The position numbers and the translations under genes were made by a program. The notes under the pieces were generated by a model, which did no database searches, was not told the origin of the DNA, and worked only from the letters and a program-made list of their open reading frames with translations. Below, in pieces: positions 9,980 through 59,854 of a DNA stretch of 64,000 bases. Positions within the stretch are counted from its first letter, which is position 1. Every line of letters starts with the position of its first letter. Source of the DNA: Acidobacteriota bacterium (GTDB lineage: Bacteria > Acidobacteriota > Blastocatellia > Pyrinomonadales > Pyrinomonadaceae); contig JANODL010000152.1 of assembly GCA_031412675.1 (NCBI GenBank), forward strand, positions 5,018-69,017. Direction: 5' to 3'.

Positions 9980-10181
9980 CGCGTTTTTCTCCGTTAAAAT
10001 ATTACCCGAATTTGCAAGTTATCACTCAATTTTGTTAGTGTCAAAACAAAGAATTTTCGTTGTTTTTAGAATTAAATTGTGCCATTCTTTTAGCGCAAAA
10101 GAAAATTCCAAATTCCATATTTCAAATTCCAAATTATTTCAATCTGGAATCTGGAATCTGAAATCTGAAATCTGAAATAAT

Positions 10182-16122: not shown

Positions 16123-16202
16123 AGGTCTTTGGTCTTTGGCTTTTGGTTTTTGGAAGAAACATTCAGTTTCAGAACCAAAACCAAAGACCAAAAGCCAAAG
16201 AC
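16123..16202. repeat. heptamer-array hairpin (GGTCTTT/GGCTTTT units versus CCAAAGA units) between convergent genes
   Basis: GGTCTTTGGTCTTTGGCTTTTGGTTTTTGG ... CCAAAACCAAAGACCAAAAGCCAAAGACC. An imperfect palindrome that probably acts as a bidirectional terminator. Confidence 0.7.
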
Positions 16203-16238
16203 CCGATCAGTAACCGAAATTATTAAAACCGGCTGATA

Positions 16239-25776: not shown

Positions 25777-25852
<76 letters not shown>

Positions 25853-25933: not shown

Positions 25934-27730
25934 ATGGTAAAAAAAATATTATTTACAATCGTTTTCGTGTTGTCGGTGGTTGGCTTTGCCAAAGCGCAAA
26001 CCGCGCCGACGGGAACCGATACGGTTTTGATTCTGCCGTTTGAAAATACCTCGCAAAGAGCCGAATTTAACTGGGTTGGCGAAAGTTTTGCCGATTCTCT
26101 GTCGGATTTATTGAAAGTTCCGAGTTTGAATGTCGTTTCAAACGATGAGCGCAAAATCATTCAGCAGCGTTTGCGCGTTCCTTTGACGAGTTTGCCGAGT
26201 CTGGCAACGTCTCTGAAGCTGGCGCGGGAAAGCAAAGCGACGCTTTTGATTGCGGGAAAATATAATATTGTTCCCGCGCAAGGCGAAACGGCGGCAATCG
26301 TCAGCGTGACGGTGAAAATTGTCCGCGTCAACGAGGGCAGATTTTTGAGCGAGGAATTTGCCGACGGAAGACGAATTACACGCGACATTTATTTGAACGA
26401 TGCTTTGCAAAATCTGCAAACCGTTCAAGGACAAGTTGCTTATCAGATTTTGTATCAGCGCGACAAGGCTTTGCCGTTTGCTCAAAATCAGTTTATCGAA
26501 GCCGCCAATAAAGTCCCGGCGCGGGCTTTTGAAGCATACATTAAAGGTTTGCTGGCTTCGGAAACCGATTCGCAAATGCGCGAAAATTATTTGAAAAACG
26601 CGATGCGGATTTATGCGGAAGAAAAGAGCGGCGCAACTTTCGCAGATGCCGCGCTCGAACTCGGACATCTTTTTCTGAATCAGCGCAAATTTGGCGAAGC
26701 GATTGATTATTTCTCGCGGATTCCGCAAGACTCGACGTTTTATCCCGAAGCCGCGTTTTATACGGGTTTGATTCACTGGCAGCAGCAGAATTACGAACAG
26801 GCTTTGGCGGTTTTGCGACCGCTTGCAGAAGATTTGAAATTAACGAGCGTTTACAACACAATCGGCGCAATTGCGATTCAGGCTTCGCGTGCCGAGAAGA
26901 AAAACAAGGGCAATTCTGCCAAACTTTTGACCGAGGGAATTGATCTTTTGAAAAAAGCTCTGGATTCCGCGCCCGACGAGTCGAATGTGCGATTTAATTA
27001 CGGATTTGCGCGTTTCTTGAATTTGCAATATGCCGAAGCCGCGCAGGAATTGCGTCCGGTTTTAGCGAGCAGTCCGAAAGACGGCGAGAGTTACTTTCTT
27101 CTGGCGAAAACTCTCGAATTGCTGAAAGACGGTTCCGCCGCCGATTTTGACAATCAGGCGCGAAGATTTTTGACCGAAGGCGACCGCTACGCGAAACTTC
27201 AAACCGAATGGGCGCGTTCGCGCACGACCGATACGATTGGAATGCGTGTCATTCAGCCGCCGCGCCGCGATTTTGTCGGTGTGATTTTGCTCAAAAATCA
27301 AACCCGAACGGTGCAAACGCCGGTCAATGAAACCGAAGCGATGCTTGTGCAAGCGCGTCAATTTTATAAAGACGGACGCGATGACGAGGCAATGACGGTT
27401 TTACGGCGCGTTCTGGTCAGCGAACCGATGAGCGCGGAAAGTTATTATCTTTTGGGAATGATTCATTTGCGGCGCGGCGATAAAGAGCAATCGGTGAGCA
27501 GTTTGAAAACCGCTCTGTTTTGGGATAACCGTTTGATAAATGCCTATATCGCATTGGTTAAAATTTATGTTGAGAAAGGCGATTGTCTGCAAGCGAAAAA
27601 CTATATGACTTCCGGTCTCGAGTCTTTGAATCAATTGGAAAGAGATTCGACCTCGACCTCGCAGATTGAAGAGAAAAAACAGGAAGTCGAAGGTTTGCAG
27701 AGACTCGTCGAAAGATGTTCTACCAAGTAA
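25934..27730 (+). CDS. secreted TPR repeat protein
   Basis: Signal peptide MVKKILFTIVFVLSVVGFAKAQ and multiple TPR-like helical repeats (e.g. YYLLGMIHLRRGDKEQSVSSLKTAL). Confidence 0.8.
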   Translation: MVKKILFTIVFVLSVVGFAKAQTAPTGTDTVLILPFENTSQRAEFNWVGESFADSLSDLLKVPSLNVVSNDERKIIQQRLRVPLTSLPSLATSLKLARESKATLLIAGKYNIVPAQGETAAIVSVTVKIVRVNEGRFLSEEFADGRRITRDIYLNDALQNLQTVQGQVAYQILYQRDKALPFAQNQFIEAANKVPARAFEAYIKGLLASETDSQMRENYLKNAMRIYAEEKSGATFADAALELGHLFLNQRKFGEAIDYFSRIPQDSTFYPEAAFYTGLIHWQQQNYEQALAVLRPLAEDLKLTSVYNTIGAIAIQASRAEKKNKGNSAKLLTEGIDLLKKALDSAPDESNVRFNYGFARFLNLQYAEAAQELRPVLASSPKDGESYFLLAKTLELLKDGSAADFDNQARRFLTEGDRYAKLQTEWARSRTTDTIGMRVIQPPRRDFVGVILLKNQTRTVQTPVNETEAMLVQARQFYKDGRDDEAMTVLRRVLVSEPMSAESYYLLGMIHLRRGDKEQSVSSLKTALFWDNRLINAYIALVKIYVEKGDCLQAKNYMTSGLESLNQLERDSTSTSQIEEKKQEVEGLQRLVERCSTK

Positions 27731-27889
27731 TGTTCCAAATAGTGTAACTCTTGCGCTGAGAAACGCCGGGCAGAAGTAAAAAGATCGTTAGTTTGAAAAT
27801 GTTGAAAGATTTGTTAAAGTGCGGTATTTACAGCGTTTTAATGACAAAAAGCAAGTTTGAAACACAAAGTTTTAAGTTTGAAATTCTTT

Positions 27890-27905
27890 TGGCACGCTAT
27901 GTGCA
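27890..27905 (+). promoter_or_regulatory. sigma54 (-24/-12) promoter
   Basis: TGGCACGCTATGTGCA versus the consensus TGGCACG-N4-TTGCW. GG and GC have the correct spacing and only one specified position is mismatched. It lies in an AT-rich intergenic region, and three AGTTTGAAA direct repeats lie upstream (27790, 27854, 27875). Confidence 0.55.
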
Positions 27906-27914
27906 TTAGTGTAA

Positions 27915-28064
27915 AGCGGCTAGCTTGATGCAGTTAATCGAGACCCCGCCGCCAACACTTCTCCGAGCGCGGTTTGCCACTGCACTCGACCACCTTCCGA
28001 GCGTTCCTTCAGTTGTCCTTCCGATTGTGAGCCTAGTCAGCAATGACTAGGCTCTCCTGCTTTT
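27915..28064 (+). ncRNA. candidate sigma54-dependent small RNA (or 40-aa micro-ORF transcript)
   Basis: A GC-rich block in an AT-rich spacer that starts about 12 nt after the -12 element. It ends in a perfect 11-bp stem with a GCAA tetraloop (28029-28054) followed, 6 nt later, by TTTT. It contains several CU-rich motifs (CCTTCC x2, TCCTTC, CTCCTG). Not matched to a known RNA family. Confidence 0.4.
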
Positions 28065-28332
28065 AAAGCCTTTATTTACTGAATATTAAGAAAAATCAAT
28101 GATTACTTGGGTTTGGTCATACCTTTTTGAATCGGTTTCAAGTAAAGGTTTCAATTTGACTGAATGAATACCGAATTATGTAACCGAATGACAAAAATCG
28201 TCATATTTGATTGACAAAATTTGTGCGCCCGTTCAGCCTGACCGTTCAATCTGAATGAAGCTATTTCAAATTGATTGAAATTGACGGATTTGGCTCACAA
28301 CTCACCGAATTTTTTGCTAAACTGTTGGCGAG

Positions 28333-29901
28333 ATGAATAAATTGTCGCGCCTCCGAAAAAATCTGCTTTCGCCTTTAAGCGCGGTTTTATCAATTGTTTC
28401 CGCATTACTTTTAATTTTGGCGTTTCCCGGTTTTGAATTTTCGCTGCTTGCGTGGTTTGCACTCGTGCCGTTATTTTTTGCAATCGAGCGTGAAAAAGAA
28501 TCGGTTGTTAAATCATTTCTGGTCGGCTGGCTTTTCGGATTGGTTTTCTTTTTCGGAACTTGCTGGTGGCTGACTTTTGCGCCGATCACTTACGCCGGAA
28601 TGCCGTGGCTTTTGACTTATTTCTTTATGTTCTGCGCGGCTTCGGTCGTCGGGATTTTTCCGGCAATTTTTAGCGCGCTTTTTTCGATTCTGCTTAAAAG
28701 ATTCGGCAGTTACGCGATTTTGTCCGCCCCGATTCTCTGGACATTCACGGAATTTTTGCGAATTTGGCTGACGGGCAATAATTGGAACGCGATTGGGTAT
28801 TCGCAGGCTTTCAATTATCTTTTGCTTGGCTTTGGAAGTTTCGGAGGCGTTCTGTTGGTAAGTTTTATTTTAGTGGCAATTAACGCTTGCTATGCTGTTC
28901 CGTTTATTAAAAGAACAAAAAATAGTGCTTGGCTTGCTCTCGTTCCCCAGTTAATACTTCTACTTGCAATTCTCCTGAACTTTTCCGCACCGATAATAAA
29001 AAAAGAGGAAGACATAAGAGCTAAAGTAATTGCCGTTCAGCCGAATGTGCCGATGAATGGTTTGACACTTGAAAAATATCAGCAATTGCTCGAACGCCAC
29101 GTTCAACTCGCCGAAAACGCCTTGAAACAACGAACGACGGGCAAAGAACAGCAAACGACCATAATCTTTCCCGAATCGCCGATGATTTTTCAATACGGGC
29201 GCGACGAAGATTTGCAGAAGTTTCTGCGCGATTTTGCCGTGCGGAACAATGCTTCGGTTTTGTTCAATTCCGCCGAATTGACAGCGGAAAAGCGTTTTCT
29301 CAATTCCGCCGTGATGGTCAACGAAAAAGGCGAAAAAACGGCGCAATACGACAAAATTCATCTGCTTCCGTTTGGCGAATACATTCCGTTTCCCGAACCG
29401 CTGGCGAGTCAGATGCCCGCGTTTGTCGGAAATTTCGAGTTCGGCAAGGAATACGATTTATTGCAGTTCGGTGAAGCAAAAGGCGGCGTGATGATTTGTT
29501 TTGAATCGCATTTCGGCGAGCTTTCGCGTGAATACGCATTACGCGGCGCAGACGTTTTAATCGAAATGACGAACGACGGTTATTTGGGAAACACGGCGGT
29601 TTTGCGCCAACATCTCGCCAATTCGGTCTTTCGCGCCGTTGAAACAAATCGTCCGCTTCTGAGAGTCACGAATGTCGGCGTGACGGCTTATATCAACGAA
29701 CGCGGCGAAGTGTCGGACGCGGCTGAAGTTTATACGGAAGCAACGCGGGTTTGGACGGTTTCAAAGTCGGACGGCAAGCAAACAATTTATGTAAAATACG
29801 GCGATTGGTTCGCGTGGCTTTGTTCACTGGTCAGTTTAGCGTTATTATTTGGAAGTTATTTTTATAAGAAAACGCAGATTGTTACAGATTCGCACAAGTA
29901 A
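28333..29901 (+). CDS. lnt: apolipoprotein N-acyltransferase
   Basis: 522 aa with about 7-8 N-terminal TM helices and a C-terminal CN-hydrolase domain (VIAVQPNVP, IFPES, MICFES). Confidence 0.9.
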   Translation: MNKLSRLRKNLLSPLSAVLSIVSALLLILAFPGFEFSLLAWFALVPLFFAIEREKESVVKSFLVGWLFGLVFFFGTCWWLTFAPITYAGMPWLLTYFFMFCAASVVGIFPAIFSALFSILLKRFGSYAILSAPILWTFTEFLRIWLTGNNWNAIGYSQAFNYLLLGFGSFGGVLLVSFILVAINACYAVPFIKRTKNSAWLALVPQLILLLAILLNFSAPIIKKEEDIRAKVIAVQPNVPMNGLTLEKYQQLLERHVQLAENALKQRTTGKEQQTTIIFPESPMIFQYGRDEDLQKFLRDFAVRNNASVLFNSAELTAEKRFLNSAVMVNEKGEKTAQYDKIHLLPFGEYIPFPEPLASQMPAFVGNFEFGKEYDLLQFGEAKGGVMICFESHFGELSREYALRGADVLIEMTNDGYLGNTAVLRQHLANSVFRAVETNRPLLRVTNVGVTAYINERGEVSDAAEVYTEATRVWTVSKSDGKQTIYVKYGDWFAWLCSLVSLALLFGSYFYKKTQIVTDSHK

Positions 29902-29912
29902 TTTATAAGACA

Positions 29913-31011
29913 ATGGAATTAAACGATTTACAGACAAAATACGAAGAAATAAAAGAGAAAGTTACCCAACTTGGGAGGTTTCTTTGACGCGCCTCGGAAA
30001 CAAGCGGAACTTGAGAAATTAGAAAAACAAATTTCCGAACCCGATTTTTGGAACGATTCGGAAAAAGCCCAAAAAATCGTTCAGCAGCGAAGCCGGATTG
30101 AAAAGGCTCTGGAACAGCAGGAAAATTTTGAAAAGTCGGTTTCCGACGCGGAAGTTTTAATCGAATTTGCCGCTTCGGACGAAAGCTCTTTCAAGGAACT
30201 TGAAAATTTAATCAATCGTTTGGAAGGCGAAGTTTCACTTGCCCAAACGCAGAGCTTGCTGTCGGGCGAAACCGATCCGAACAACGCGATTTGTTCGATT
30301 CAATCGGGCGCGGGCGGCACCGACGCGCAAGATTGGGCGCAGATGCTTCTCAGAATGTATCTGCGTTGGGCTGAACGCAAGGGTTTTAAGGTCGAGATAA
30401 TAGATGAACAATCGGGAAGTGAAGCGGGAATCAAGTCGGCGACTTTTCGCGTCGAAGGCGATTACGCTTACGGACTTTTGGCAAATGAAGCGGGCGTGCA
30501 TCGCCTTGTGAGAATTTCGCCGTTCAATTCGGGCGGAAGCCGCGAAACTTCGTTTGCTTCGATGTTCGTTTCCCCCGAAATTGACGAAAATATCGAGGTT
30601 GATATTCAGGACAAGGATTTGCGGATTGATACTTATCGCTCGTCGGGCGCGGGCGGTCAGCACGTCAATGTGACTGATTCGGCGGTCAGAATCACGCATT
30701 TGCCGACAAATATTGTCGTCACTTGTCAGAATCAACGTTCGCAGATTCAGAACCGCGCCGTCGCAATGCAGGTTTTGCGTTCAAAACTATACGAACTCGA
30801 ACTCGAAAAACGCCGCGCCGATTCTGCCGATCTGGAAGCGACCAAACAGGATATTTCGTTCGGTTCGCAGATTCGCAACTACGTTTTGCATCCGTATCGC
30901 CTGGTTAAAGACACGCGGACAAAGTTTGAAGTTTCGGACGTTGAAGCCGTGTTAGACGGCGACATTGACGATTTTATAAAGGAATTTTTGATATTTAAAA
31001 AAGGCGTTTAG
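29913..31011 (+). CDS. prfB: peptide chain release factor 2, with programmed +1 frameshift at CTT TGA C (29982-29988)
   Basis: ORF0 is MELNDLQTKYEEIKEKVTQLGRFL* and has an internal SD-like GGGAGG just upstream of CTTTGAC. The +1 frame continues DAPRKQAELEKLE... and contains the SPF and GGQ motifs. Confidence 0.95.
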
Positions 31012-42945: not shown

Positions 42946-43133
42946 CTCGATTTCGGATTTCGGATTTCGGATTTCGGATTGTTTGAAACACCAAAAACGT
43001 AATTGAAAATGAATCAATCCGCGGCGCAAACCAATCTCAAATCCCAAATCTCAAATCGTAAATCCAATTATACTCTTGACCTCTGCGCTTGGAAAAGTAA
43101 AACTTTAATAAAAACCTAAAAAGGAGAAAAAAA

Positions 43134-44080: not shown

Positions 44081-44170
44081 TAACGCAAAGACGCAAAGAT
44101 GCAAAGGCGCAAAAGTTAAAATAATTATTAGAATCTCTTTGCGTCTTTGTTCCTTTGCGTCTTTGCGTTA
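44081..44170. repeat. heptamer-array hairpin (CGCAAAG words)
   Basis: The outer 18-bp stem is perfect: TAACGCAAAGACGCAAAG (44081-98) pairs with CTTTGCGTCTTTGCGTTA (44153-70). The inner part is imperfect. Confidence 0.7.
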
Positions 44171-44183
44171 ATTAATTAAGATT

Positions 44184-44618
44184 ATGACAAACGAAAATTT
44201 ACAACTGATTTACACGCTTCTTTGCGACGATGTGCGGATCGAGATGGGCAACAAAATCTCTCTGATGGGAGTTTTTCAAAACATTATGGTCGAGAAATTG
44301 CCGATTTCATTGATAAAATTTGCGGTTGTCAATCATTGGCGCGGCGCGGGCAATCATCACACCGAAGTGCGGATTCTCTCGCCGAACAAAAGCAATCTGG
44401 TCGTCACATCCCAACCGACGCATATCGAACTCGCCCCGGGCGGTTTTACCGACAATGTTTCGTTTTTCGTTAATGTCGTCTTTCCGTCGGCGGGAACTTA
44501 TTGGGTTCAAACGCTTGCCGATGCACGTCTGCTCGAAGAATTTCCGCTGATTGTCACAGATGTCAATAATGTCGAATCAATGCAGACAACCGAGGAGATT
44601 TCGGAAACCATCAATTAA
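44184..44618 (+). CDS. hypothetical protein (144 aa)
   Basis: A clean ORF bracketed by two large heptamer hairpins. No family recognised. Confidence 0.5.
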   Translation: MTNENLQLIYTLLCDDVRIEMGNKISLMGVFQNIMVEKLPISLIKFAVVNHWRGAGNHHTEVRILSPNKSNLVVTSQPTHIELAPGGFTDNVSFFVNVVFPSAGTYWVQTLADARLLEEFPLIVTDVNNVESMQTTEEISETIN

Positions 44619-44750
44619 AGTAAAAAGTAAAAAGTAAAAAGTAAAAAGTAAAAAGTAAAAAGTAAAAAGTAAAAAATTGCGTCTTACCTGAAACTAATTT
44701 CGAGTAAGACGCAATTAAATTTTTGCCTTTTTACTTTTTACTTTTTACTT
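44619..44750. repeat. composite palindrome: (GTAAAAA)x7 array, 13-bp central hairpin, (CTTTTTA)x3 array
   Basis: AAGTAAAAAGTAAAAAG... (44619-44676), then AATTGCGTCTTAC-loop-GTAAGACGCAATT (44675-44716), then TTTTTGCCTTTTTACTTTTTACTTTTTACTT. It lies between convergent genes. Confidence 0.8.
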
Positions 44751-47632: not shown

Positions 47633-47643
47633 AATTTAAAAAT

Positions 47644-47712
47644 GGAGAGTGGAGAGTGGAGAGTCAAGGAAAATTCTTAAACTCTCCACTCTCCACTTTT
47701 AACTCTCCACTC
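47644..47712. repeat. heptamer-array hairpin (GGAGAGT words)
   Basis: GGAGAGTGGAGAGTGGAGAGT (47644-64) pairs with ACTCTCCACTCTCCAC (47681-96), and a third partial unit lies at 47702-12. It lies between the S9 peptidase stop and the UXS start on the same strand. Confidence 0.75.
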
Positions 47713-50017: not shown

Positions 50018-50571
50018 AATTTAGTCTTCTTCATCACTCAAAGCCTCGCGCAAGGCTTCGAGTTCGGGCAAAACAAGCAAATCTTTCGTGCGTCCGGCGG
50101 CGCGTTTGGCATTTATTAAATCGTCGAGTTGGCAAAAATATTTTGAATTGATTATAAAGTATCTATGCCCGAAAATCCGCACGACAGAGAAGATTCGGAA
50201 AAAGAAAACGATAAAAACGCCGAAAAATCTGCGCGGCGCGAAGACCAAAAGCGGCGAAGTTATTATTACGACGACGCACACGGTTACGAAGTTTATCAGC
50301 CGGAGGAAGAAAAAGAGGAGAAAAGGAGCGGAGGAGAAGAGGAGATAAGTTCTTAAGTGATAAGAAACTGTTTTAAAACTCGAAAGCTGTTGAAAATCTC
50401 GAATTATCAACTTTCAATTAGCAATTAGCAATTAAATTCAGAAGTAATAATCGTTTAATAACCTCAAAAGTAATTGGTAATTGATAATTGATAATTGATA
50501 AAGCGGTTTTCACCTTTAATCATTTTGAGTTTTCAAACTGCTTTTTAGAAAAATCTCCTCTTCTCCTCTTC

Positions 50572-56539: not shown

Positions 56540-58126
56540 ATGAAATTTAGAATTCTTGTTAATGGTGTTTTCCGGTTTCCTTTCCAAACAAAGCATTTAG
56601 CCGTTTTCGTCTTAACTGTTTTGTTCATTATCGGTTTGCCTGCCCTCGGGTTGGCAGGCGATGACGTGCAGCAAATCGAAGAAGATACCCGTCAACAAAT
56701 CAAACAAGCGGAAAAATTAGCCAAAAAAGGCAACGTCGCCGAAGCCGAAAAGATTTTGCGTAAAATAATCGAGCGCAATCCGTCGCATTCGACCGCCAAA
56801 CTAAAACTTGCCTACATACTTCTCAAGCAAAAGCAGTTGCTCGGAGCCTACGAATTGTCGTTTGAAATCGCTAAAAACGAACCGAAAAATTCGTATGCCT
56901 ATGCCGTTTTGGGCGCAACGCTTTTAAGTGCGGGAAATTTTAAGGAAGCTGACAAAATTTTAGTCGCCGCGATAACTTTGAAGAAAAGCGAAGCCTTAGC
57001 TTGGGCAGGACTCGGAATGTTGGATTTTTACGAAAACCGCATTTCGGATTCGATAGAAAATCTGAAGACAGCGGTTTATTTCGACAGCGACGAGCCGGAT
57101 TATATCTTTGCGCTTGCCCAAGTTTCGGCGCGGGCTGAAAAATACAAGGAAGCGGCAGATGCCTATAACATATTTTTGCAGGTTTCACCGCAAACCGACA
57201 CCGAAAGACGCGACCGCATCAAAGGACTTATCAATTTTCTCCGCTTTTTGGGCGCAAAACGCTCGCTCTATAATTTGGACGGCGGCTCCCGAACAGTAGT
57301 TTCGTTCGATTTGATGAGAGACCGTCCCGTCATCAAACTCAAGGTCAATAACAAAGAAGAGCCGCTGAAATTTGTTTTGGATACCGGCTCGGGAATTTCC
57401 GTTATCTCCAGAGAAACGGCAGAACGCTTGAAAATCAAACCGATTACACGCGGCGGATTGGCACGGGCAATCGGCGGCAACGGAAAATTTGAAATCGTCT
57501 ACGGCTTTTTGAAATCGGTTAATATCGGCGATGTTCAAATAAAAAGCGTTCCGGTTTATATCCGCGAATTTCATTCCAACGATGAAAAAATTGACGGCTA
57601 CATCGGATTGTCGCTGATTTCAAAATTTTTGACGACGATTGACTACGGTGAATTGACCTTTTCGTTGGTTAGAAAAGACATTGCGGACGAACAGAATCTC
57701 GTTGAAAACAAAAGTTTGTTTTTACCGCTTCGACTGACTTCGAGCGGATTTTTGAGCGGCGAAGTTCAGCTTGAAGGGGTCGAAAATTCACTCAATTTTA
57801 TTGTTGATACAGGCGCGAGCATTTCGGTTATTTCCGATGAAGTCGCTAACCTTTCGGGAATCAGCCGCTTTGTCCGCAATGAAAAAATGCGGGTTGTCGG
57901 AGCCGCCGGCATAACGGAAAACGTGTCATCGTTTTTGCTTCCGCGCATTACTTTCGGCACTAATTCGCGTGAAAGCATCACGGCAATCGCGCTTGATTTG
58001 GACATCATCAACGAGGCTTCGGGTTTTCGTCAGGCGGGAATTTTGGGCGGAAATTTTTTGAAGAATTATCGTTTGACGTTTGATTTTAAAAACTCGAAAG
58101 TAATTTTTACGCCGATCAGAAAATGA
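56540..58126 (+). CDS. TPR protein with two retropepsin-like aspartyl protease domains
   Basis: An N-terminal TM/signal, TPRs, then two D-T-G sites (FVLDTGSGISVIS and FIVDTGASISVIS). Confidence 0.75.
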   Translation: MKFRILVNGVFRFPFQTKHLAVFVLTVLFIIGLPALGLAGDDVQQIEEDTRQQIKQAEKLAKKGNVAEAEKILRKIIERNPSHSTAKLKLAYILLKQKQLLGAYELSFEIAKNEPKNSYAYAVLGATLLSAGNFKEADKILVAAITLKKSEALAWAGLGMLDFYENRISDSIENLKTAVYFDSDEPDYIFALAQVSARAEKYKEAADAYNIFLQVSPQTDTERRDRIKGLINFLRFLGAKRSLYNLDGGSRTVVSFDLMRDRPVIKLKVNNKEEPLKFVLDTGSGISVISRETAERLKIKPITRGGLARAIGGNGKFEIVYGFLKSVNIGDVQIKSVPVYIREFHSNDEKIDGYIGLSLISKFLTTIDYGELTFSLVRKDIADEQNLVENKSLFLPLRLTSSGFLSGEVQLEGVENSLNFIVDTGASISVISDEVANLSGISRFVRNEKMRVVGAAGITENVSSFLLPRITFGTNSRESITAIALDLDIINEASGFRQAGILGGNFLKNYRLTFDFKNSKVIFTPIRK

Positions 58127-58198
58127 GTAAAGAGTGGAGAGTAGAGAGTAAAGAGTTTGGCTTGACTCTCCACTCTCCACTCTCTACTCTCTACTCTT
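58127..58198. repeat. heptamer-array hairpin (GAGAGTA/GGAGAGT words)
   Basis: GTAAAGAGTGGAGAGTAGAGAGTAAAGAGT ... GACTCTCCACTCTCCACTCTCTACTCTCTACTCTT. It uses the same word family as 47644-47712. Confidence 0.7.
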
Positions 58199-59777: not shown

Positions 59778-59845
59778 GGATTTGGGATTGAGGATTGCGG
59801 ATTTGGGATTTATTTTTCAAATCCGCAATCCTCAATCCCAAATCC
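59778..59845. repeat. perfect 27-bp hairpin built from GATTTGG/GATTGAG/GATTGCG heptamers
   Basis: GGATTTGGGATTGAGGATTGCGGATTT (59778-59804), a 14-nt loop, then AAATCCGCAATCCTCAATCCCAAATCC (59819-59845). It begins 2 nt after a stop codon and ends 10 nt before the next ATG. Confidence 0.85.
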
Positions 59846-59854
59846 CAAATCAAA

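Follow-up and report, generated by a model that had tools for sequence, protein, structure and literature searches.

A predicted small noncoding RNA behind a sigma-54-type promoter, conserved across the Blastocatellia

The stretch of DNA analyzed here, referred to as the window, comprises 64,000 nucleotides of contig JANODL010000152.1 (positions 5,018 to 69,017, forward strand) from a member of the Pyrinomonadaceae (Acidobacteriota, class Blastocatellia). Our subject is the intergenic spacer between a gene for a TPR protein and lnt, the gene for apolipoprotein N-acyltransferase. An initial annotation, made from the sequence alone, had proposed that this spacer of roughly 600 bp (602 bp as measured) contains a sigma-54-dependent small RNA (sRNA). 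As far as sequence comparison reaches, that interpretation is supported, and the spacer appears to hold a real, highly conserved, structured noncoding RNA gene of the Blastocatellia, a group of soil Acidobacteria. The GC-rich block pointed out in the initial annotation is distinct in composition (GC content of 0.56 to 0.57, versus 0.31 to 0.41 in the flanks), has a negative GC skew, and contains a candidate RNA gene that is present as a single copy in the window, with a covariance model score of 179 bits. The features of the locus are as follows.

25934-27730, + strand: gene for a secreted TPR protein with a signal-peptide-like N terminus (Pfam TPR families)
27731-28332, 602 bp: intergenic spacer between the TPR gene and lnt
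27890-27905, + strand: sigma-54-type promoter TGGCACG-CTAT-GTGCA (-24 GG at 27891-27892, -12 GC at 27903-27904)
27916-28064, + strand: predicted small RNA of about 149 nt (+1 placed from the position of the -12 element, 3' end from the U-run)
27917-27948, + strand: 5' domain, in which P1 (27917-27919/27946-27948) closes stem-loop SL1 (27924-27929/27937-27942)
27950-28003, + strand: predicted long-range helix P3, pairing CGCC (27950-27953) with G-GCG (27999-28003) and enclosing SL2
27956-27964, + strand: upstream CU-rich motif CACUUCUCC, which with GAGCG makes the first copy of an internal repeat, CUUC(U)CCGAGCG
27965-27987, + strand: stem-loop SL2, pairing 27965-27973 with 27979-27987
27992-28022, + strand: near-invariant pyrimidine-rich segment ACCUUCC-GAGCG-UUCCUUC-AGUUG-UCCUUCC, a candidate seed or binding region of about 31 nt
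28029-28054, + strand: 3' hairpin with an 11-bp stem, from a terminator-like scan
28055-28064, + strand: 3' tail, consisting of a pyrimidine spacer, UCCUGC, and then UUUU
28333-29901, + strand: lnt, outside the RNA (TIGR00546, 262.7 bits)

Relatives were collected by a scan with the Lnt protein, with one genome kept per species. The scan gave 80 loci, all from the class Blastocatellia and mostly from metagenome-assembled genomes of Pyrinomonadaceae, with Lnt identities of 53 to 80%. A blastn search with positions 27880 to 28070 located the block in 72 of these 80 Lnt-anchored loci at 78 to 96% nucleotide identity, where Lnt itself reaches only 54 to 80%, always on the lnt strand and a few hundred nucleotides upstream of lnt. 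The remainder of the spacer can be aligned in the closest relatives only, and the RNA is far better conserved than the flanking genes. Five of the eight loci without the block have too little upstream sequence, and the other three (L004, L008, and L011) have a different gene upstream of lnt. The alignment used below consists of 74 copies gathered through Lnt only, with the RNA sequence itself unused, so that the invariance seen in it is not circular; 39 of its columns are invariant, including 15 consecutive nucleotides, CCTTCCGAGCGTTCC (27993 to 28007). A metagenome scan with a 20-base pattern taken from the invariant stretch matched at least 120 contigs, and all of the 80 loci listed from it contain the RNA (83 to 186 bits), 72 at full length and 8 cut at a contig end. 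The RNA is also carried by the complete chromosomes OZ252034.1, OZ244558.1, OZ244585.1, OZ243957.1, and OZ252004.1. These distributions suggest that the RNA is near-universal in the Blastocatellia (Pyrinomonadales).

Four loci carry a tandem second copy that lies 310 to 510 nt upstream of the main one and has a TGGCAC..TGC promoter and a 3' hairpin of its own:

L055 3144-3290: tandem second copy
L062 2283-2436: tandem second copy
L065 2814-2962: tandem second copy
L197 6964-7111: tandem second copy

The second copies of L055, L062, and L065 retain the first CU motif and have an altered second or third motif (TTCCACCAG, GTCCAACC), which would fit paralogs of changed specificity.

The structure of the RNA was predicted with RNAalifold on the alignment of homologs, and the pair counts were then tested against slid partners and 500 shuffles. 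The initial annotation had named covariation among homologous spacers as a check, and its outcome favors a conserved fold: compensatory changes occur in 16 of 31 pairs, three helices (SL1, SL2, and the 3' hairpin) covary, and standard pairs occupy 98.4% of the cells, versus 29 to 44% with partners slid by 1 to 3 columns, a level that none of the 500 shuffles reached. SL1 has compensatory changes in three of its six pairs, with 98.6% of cells paired and a loop of variable length. SL2 has eight pairs (98.5% of cells paired), three of them with compensatory changes, together with many G·U to G-C changes, and in the 3' hairpin all 10 modeled pairs show compensatory changes. The columns of P3 are all invariant, so covariation speaks neither for nor against this helix. 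Two further helices were rejected, a helix closing the 5' and 3' ends (76.7% paired) and a CAGUUG/CGAUUG hairpin around the third CU motif (68% paired), both at the level of the shuffles. The 3' hairpin had been described as an 11-bp stem with a GCAA tetraloop at 28029 to 28054, followed by TTTT 6 nt later. All of this is present in the window, with TCCTGC as the intervening sequence; in the homologs, however, the GCAA loop is not conserved, and the stem alone is kept. The U-run lies 6 to 7 nt beyond the stem in all homologs, whereas in the TPR-gene terminators of the same loci the U-run follows the stem immediately.

Upstream of the RNA, the sigma-54-like element TGGCACGCTATGTGCA is found where it had been reported (27890 to 27905), and it matches the consensus TGGCACG-N4-TTGCW at 15 of 16 positions, with GTGC in place of TTGC as the sole mismatch and with GG and GC exactly 10 nt apart. 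On its own, such a match is not significant in a window of 64 kb (one occurrence at no more than one mismatch versus 0.46 expected, and 39 of 100 shuffles with at least one), and the significance of the promoter derives instead from its conservation across the related loci. Every copy of the RNA is preceded by TGGCAC(G)-N4/5-(G/A)TGC(A/T). The pattern TGGCA[CT]G-N4-[TGA]TGC[AT] occurs 169 times in 1.42 Mb (the related loci plus the window), always before a copy of the RNA and never elsewhere, so that the same pattern revealed no further sigma-54 promoters in this sequence. The 4 to 5 nt between the boxes and the approximately 12 nt down to +1 vary among species, while the boxes are constant. 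Counting from the -12 C at 27904 places the expected start near 27916, and conservation of the RNA resumes 12 to 14 nt past the -12 GC, at the predicted +1; an invariant GGC begins at 27918. Many copies also have a short palindrome, GCACG...CGTGC, across the promoter, and the frequent variants TATGC and GATGC disrupt this palindrome and retain the sigma-54 determinants alone. Constant boxes around a drifting spacer are what selection on a sigma-54 promoter would be expected to produce, and transcription of the RNA probably depends on sigma-54.

The most conserved segment of the RNA is predicted to be single stranded. The CCTTCC, TCCTTC, and CTCCTG motifs and the duplicated TCCGAGCG (copies at 27961 and 27996) that the initial annotation had singled out are all in the block sequence. 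In the 74 homologs the three CCUUC motifs of the segment from 27992 to 28022 have a mean unpaired probability of 0.85 to 0.90, and the upstream motif (27956 to 27964) has one of about 0.8 to 0.99; helices that would bury the CU motifs are unsupported. The spacer at 28055 to 28060 is exposed as well and provides a fifth CU motif. The complement of CCUUCC is GGAAGG, which pairs perfectly, and GGGAGG pairs with one wobble. By eye, a Shine-Dalgarno sequence is recognizable in only about a fifth of 50 long open reading frames of the window; therefore, only a subset of the mRNAs would be hit by an RNA with such motifs. Complementary 10-mers at start codons were seen at a phage-type integrase and at scattered genes.

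On balance, the likeliest reading of these data is that the block specifies a noncoding sRNA of about 149 nt, produced from its own sigma-54 unit and acting in trans through its CU motifs on purine-rich ribosome-binding sites. The RNA would form its own transcription unit, starting at the RpoN -24/-12 promoter (27890 to 27905), separated from the TPR gene by the TPR terminator region, and ending at the conserved 3' hairpin, short pyrimidine spacer, and U-run. An enhancer-binding protein would switch the promoter on. The exposed CU motifs would then pair in trans with ribosome-binding regions of the GGAAGG or GGGAGG type, and this pairing would block the start of translation and possibly destabilize the mRNA. 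The parts of this proposal differ in strength. That the locus is transcribed as a discrete RNA is very likely; that the RNA works by base pairing with ribosome-binding sites is a suggestion we make tentatively.

Other accounts of the nature of the block fare poorly. A conserved DNA element without a stable RNA, such as a protein-binding region, is extremely improbable, because a DNA site would not be expected to show compensatory changes that keep pairs, including G·U pairs possible on one strand only. From these G·U pairs the RNA can also be placed on the + strand: 280 cells with G·U would become A·C on the other strand, and pairing would fall from 98.4% to 86.5%. The reverse complement of the invariant stretch does contain three GGA motifs (GGAAGG, GAAGGA), as would suit a CsrB-like RNA on the minus strand. 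Fold strength relative to shuffled sequences is, however, unremarkable on that strand (z = -1.27, versus z = -4.05 on the + strand), no conserved promoter was found downstream of 28066, no U-run follows the hairpin on that strand, and the conserved promoter faces the + strand, so that we give a functional minus-strand RNA hardly any credence. A sponge of the CsrB/RsmZ type was considered in the same way, and its GGA motifs occur only on the strand excluded by the G·U evidence. The block could also encode a peptide, since the 40-codon open reading frame noted from 27928, which lacks a Shine-Dalgarno sequence, does exist (the list of open reading frames gives 27925 to 28050, from a TTG). Its start ATG lies within the covarying SL1 stem, however, and among 168 distinct homologs the frame has an ATG in 3, no in-frame start codon in 33, and a length of 0 to 55 codons; indels, both of 1 nt and in loop length, precede the invariant block. 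The reading frame is thus not conserved, the RNA is supported as noncoding, and a 40-residue peptide or other small protein is scarcely credible. A further candidate is a cis-acting 5' leader of lnt, in the form of a riboswitch or attenuator whose 3' hairpin would be a regulated terminator with read-through into lnt. In its favor, most loci have lnt downstream on the same strand, and an RNA motif named 'lnt' is known upstream of lnt in another phylum. The gap between the RNA and lnt, however, measures 206 to 1066 nt and contains a conserved promoter- or operator-like block of its own. The association also breaks in both directions: the RNA occurs without a downstream lnt in L128 (with the TPR gene) and in L109 and L141 (in other contexts), and lnt occurs without the RNA in the three lineages L004, L008, and L011. 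In addition, tandem copies each carry a separate promoter and hairpin, no covarying alternative anti-terminator pairing was seen in the alignment, and no cis-regulatory family of Rfam matches. We therefore regard a leader function as very unlikely, and the RNA as a stand-alone unit with its own promoter, 3' hairpin, and U-run that is not tied to one downstream gene.

How the RNA would act is less clear-cut, and several results weigh against an sRNA driven by sigma-54 that pairs with ribosome-binding sites. Genes for RpoN or an enhancer-binding protein were not found in the window or in 200 loci, the sequence covered by a scan for GAFTGA, Walker A, and the RpoN box, and a literature search found no paper on sigma-54 in the Blastocatellia; papers on related genomes make no mention of it. 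A conserved upstream activator site, usually an inverted repeat 80 to 200 nt upstream, was not found; the approximately 150 nt upstream of the promoter are occupied by species-specific heptamer arrays and the TPR terminator. A 3' hairpin with a spaced U-run is not a textbook terminator, which leaves efficient intrinsic termination uncertain. In the search for targets, 1.4 Mb around the locus showed no enrichment of 10-mers complementary to the invariant stretch (42 versus about 60 expected), the neighboring genes showed no conserved site, and the start regions of tpr, lnt, and ftsK pair with the RNA no better than internal controls do. The prfB frameshift site looked stronger but was rejected as a target, as only its universal GGGAGG is conserved and 5.5% of random 23-mers pair equally well. 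Finally, the linkers that separate the CU motifs show the same invariance as the motifs themselves, which exceeds the need of simple anti-Shine-Dalgarno seeds. This last point, together with the regular spacing of the motifs, keeps the titration of a protein a serious rival, if an unlikely one. In that case four to five exposed CCUUC motifs, spaced by 11 to 13 nt, would sequester a protein that binds single-stranded pyrimidine tracts, comparable to CsrB/RsmZ with CsrA or CrcZ with Hfq/Crc. The motifs are repeated, near-identical, regularly spaced, and predicted to be single stranded, the internal repeat CUUC(U)CCGAGCG hints at modular construction, and no complementary target was found in the sequence searched. 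Linkers drift in the known sponges, however, and here they are invariant; the motifs number only four to five; and we know of no bacterial protein of CCUUC specificity. A broader idea, which we consider improbable, is that the RNA, being neither a usual sRNA with few targets nor a usual sponge, mimics the pyrimidine-rich 3' tail of 16S rRNA; its four to five exposed CCUUC motifs would compete with ribosomes for the minority of mRNAs in this lineage that still rely on a Shine-Dalgarno sequence, or else would titrate a pyrimidine-tract protein. Either way, a sigma-54 activator would reprogram translation globally, possibly in response to the state of the cell envelope. The first motif, GACCACCUUCC, resembles the 16S 3' tail (GAUCACCUCC), and the cell envelope comes into consideration because the constant neighbors are a secreted TPR protein and lnt.

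The region between the TPR gene and the promoter is of a different character from the RNA. In most relatives it contains two inverted arms of 30 to 35 nt, about 65 nt apart, each made of about five tandem heptamers. The heptamers are species specific and the arms mutually complementary, as in (GAGAGTG)5/(CACTCTC)5 in L012 and (GGATTTT)n/(AAAATCC)n in L002. The inverted arrangement has been lost in the window, and only a decayed array is left at the position of the right arm.

27853-27884, + strand: decayed heptamer array AAGTTTG/AAACACA/AAGTTTT/AAGTTTG, including two of the three AGTTTGAAA repeats
27750-27885: window equivalent of the inverted heptamer arrays
L002 3424-3553: inverted heptamer arrays
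L012 1658-1794: inverted heptamer arrays
L003 2332-2461: inverted heptamer arrays
L014 3397-3520: inverted heptamer arrays

The three direct AGTTTGAAA repeats listed in the initial annotation are present (27790, 27854, and 27875), but a role as activator sites does not hold, as they are part of a decayed heptamer array, a genome-wide intergenic feature, and are not conserved in relatives. A second candidate activator site, CCAAATAGTGTAAC, which is the only upstream motif that is conserved, was likewise rejected. It occurs once in the window, lies at a fixed 152 to 157 nt from the promoter, and is mostly the ..RCS(T)K-stop ending of the TPR gene; another clade uses different synonymous codons at this position. 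The spacing between the TPR stop codon and TGGCAC is itself held tightly at 152 to 157 nt, although the sequence in between is not conserved. In the window, the TPR gene ends in ..RCSTK-TAA (stop at 27728 to 27730), which is directly followed by TGTTCCAAATAG, equivalent to the ..CSK-stop ending of relatives, so that two versions of the 3' end of the TPR gene follow one another in the window (27714 to 27750). In a more distant clade, the TPR gene has an obvious intrinsic terminator between the arms and thus between its stop codon and the promoter. Transcription from upstream is probably stopped in this heptamer/terminator region before it reaches the sigma-54 promoter.

Long hairpins with stems of tandem heptamers (in one case octamers) and dG values of -31 to -55 kcal/mol are found past gene ends in many intergenic regions. 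Each has its own repeat unit, and some enclose an ordinary inner hairpin (44617 to 44750).

16124-16203, 42949-43065, 44083-44168, 44617-44750, 47643-47712, 58125-58197, and 59778-59851: heptamer-armed hairpins
10103-10178 and 50415-50501: further heptamer-armed hairpins

Since they are common in the intergenic regions of this genome, the heptamer hairpins are a general feature outside the logic of this promoter. They recall the heptamer STRR repeats of cyanobacteria, and to our knowledge such arrays have not been described in Acidobacteria. The metagenome contigs L125, L122, L091, L101, and L126 end within a few nucleotides of the 5' end of the RNA, probably because assemblies break in the heptamer repeats just upstream.

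Among the neighboring genes, it is the TPR gene whose 3' end constantly accompanies the RNA. This gene lies upstream wherever enough sequence is available, with few exceptions, and is retained when lnt is located elsewhere; the genes around the copies without lnt gave no functional hint. A conserved block at 28186 to 28280, about 60 to 150 nt upstream of lnt and present in 20 to 25 loci, holds the palindrome ATGACAAAAATCGTCAT (28200 to 28216), followed by TTGACAAAATTTGT, as well as the inverted pair TTCAATCTGAA / TTCAAATTGA, and is probably the promoter or operator of lnt. A tRNA gene (25777 to 25849) lies just upstream of the TPR gene, and a phage-type integrase is found at the corresponding place in L006 (266 to 1426), so that this site may be an integration hotspot. 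Downstream of lnt, prfB (release factor 2, 29913 to 31011) has its usual programmed +1 frameshift, with GGGAGG at 29973 to 29978 and CTT TGA C at 29982 to 29988; this site is conserved in 119 distinct related sequences and is ordinary.

Acidobacteria are among the most abundant soil bacteria. An RNA that is near-universal in the Blastocatellia and common in soil metagenomes, with an unusually long invariant region of CU repeats, would be of interest in this soil phylum, which is major but little studied. For analysis of the structure and seed of the RNA, more than 160 natural variants are available. Its promoter indicates the class of regulator, sigma-54 with an activator, and thus offers an entry point to posttranscriptional control in the phylum.

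The RNA probably represents an undescribed family of a known kind, namely, an sRNA transcribed from a sigma-54 promoter. The initial annotation could assign the block to none of the common RNA classes and had suggested an Rfam scan. That scan matched no Rfam 15 family on either strand; at gathering thresholds the window gave two tRNAs only, and at E values up to 10 there were only chance-level hits to eukaryotic families at the edges of the block. The comparison covers Qrr, GlmY/Z, RsaE, 6S, SRP, tmRNA, RNase P, the Acidobacteria motifs, and lnt, and a literature search found no sRNA or characterized regulatory RNA of the Blastocatellia. The 'lnt' RNA motif is a candidate cis-regulator upstream of lnt in Chlorobi. 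The block is likewise upstream of lnt on the same strand, but it does not match that motif in Rfam at E values up to 10, and in several lineages it is uncoupled from lnt yet still linked to the TPR gene. Short CT-rich anti-Shine-Dalgarno insulator motifs have been described near sigma-54 promoters, where they pair with a Shine-Dalgarno sequence and so silence translation (bioRxiv 10.1101/086108). Those motifs lie no more than 25 nt from the Shine-Dalgarno sequence of the following gene, which they regulate in cis, whereas the motifs considered here are in a terminated, structured RNA, hundreds of nucleotides from the next gene.

The closest parallels are found among sRNAs. Like GlmY/GlmZ, NrsZ, CrcZ, and NfiS, the RNA would depend on sigma-54 and an enhancer-binding protein, and GlmY/GlmZ and CrcZ/CrcY are also pairs of paralogs; unlike the case here, those RNAs have known conserved activator sites, and there is no sequence relation to them. 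Sigma-54-dependent sRNAs with long invariant pairing regions are exemplified by Qrr. With Qrr1-5 of Vibrio (sigma-54 and LuxO) our RNA shares a short, stand-alone form behind a sigma-54-type promoter, an invariant stretch of about 30 nt, which in Qrr serves pairing, and additional tandem or paralogous copies with promoters of their own. It differs in belonging to another phylum, in showing no match to Qrr in Rfam sequence or structure, and in having CU repeats as its invariant stretch. Pairing of C-rich or CU-rich sRNA motifs with Shine-Dalgarno sequences is a known mode of action, as in RoxS/RsaE. Our RNA resembles RoxS/RsaE and other C-rich sRNAs of the Firmicutes in having several exposed motifs, rich in C or CU, with the potential to pair with G-rich Shine-Dalgarno sequences. 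There is no homology between them, the motif here is CCUUC(C) rather than UCCC, and RoxS/RsaE-type RNAs use sigma-A-type promoters under the control of ResD/Rex or SrrAB, in place of the sigma-54-type promoter found here. If the CU motifs do pair with ribosome-binding sites, the C-rich seed mode of the Firmicutes would also operate in a distant phylum, one where such sites are used by few genes.

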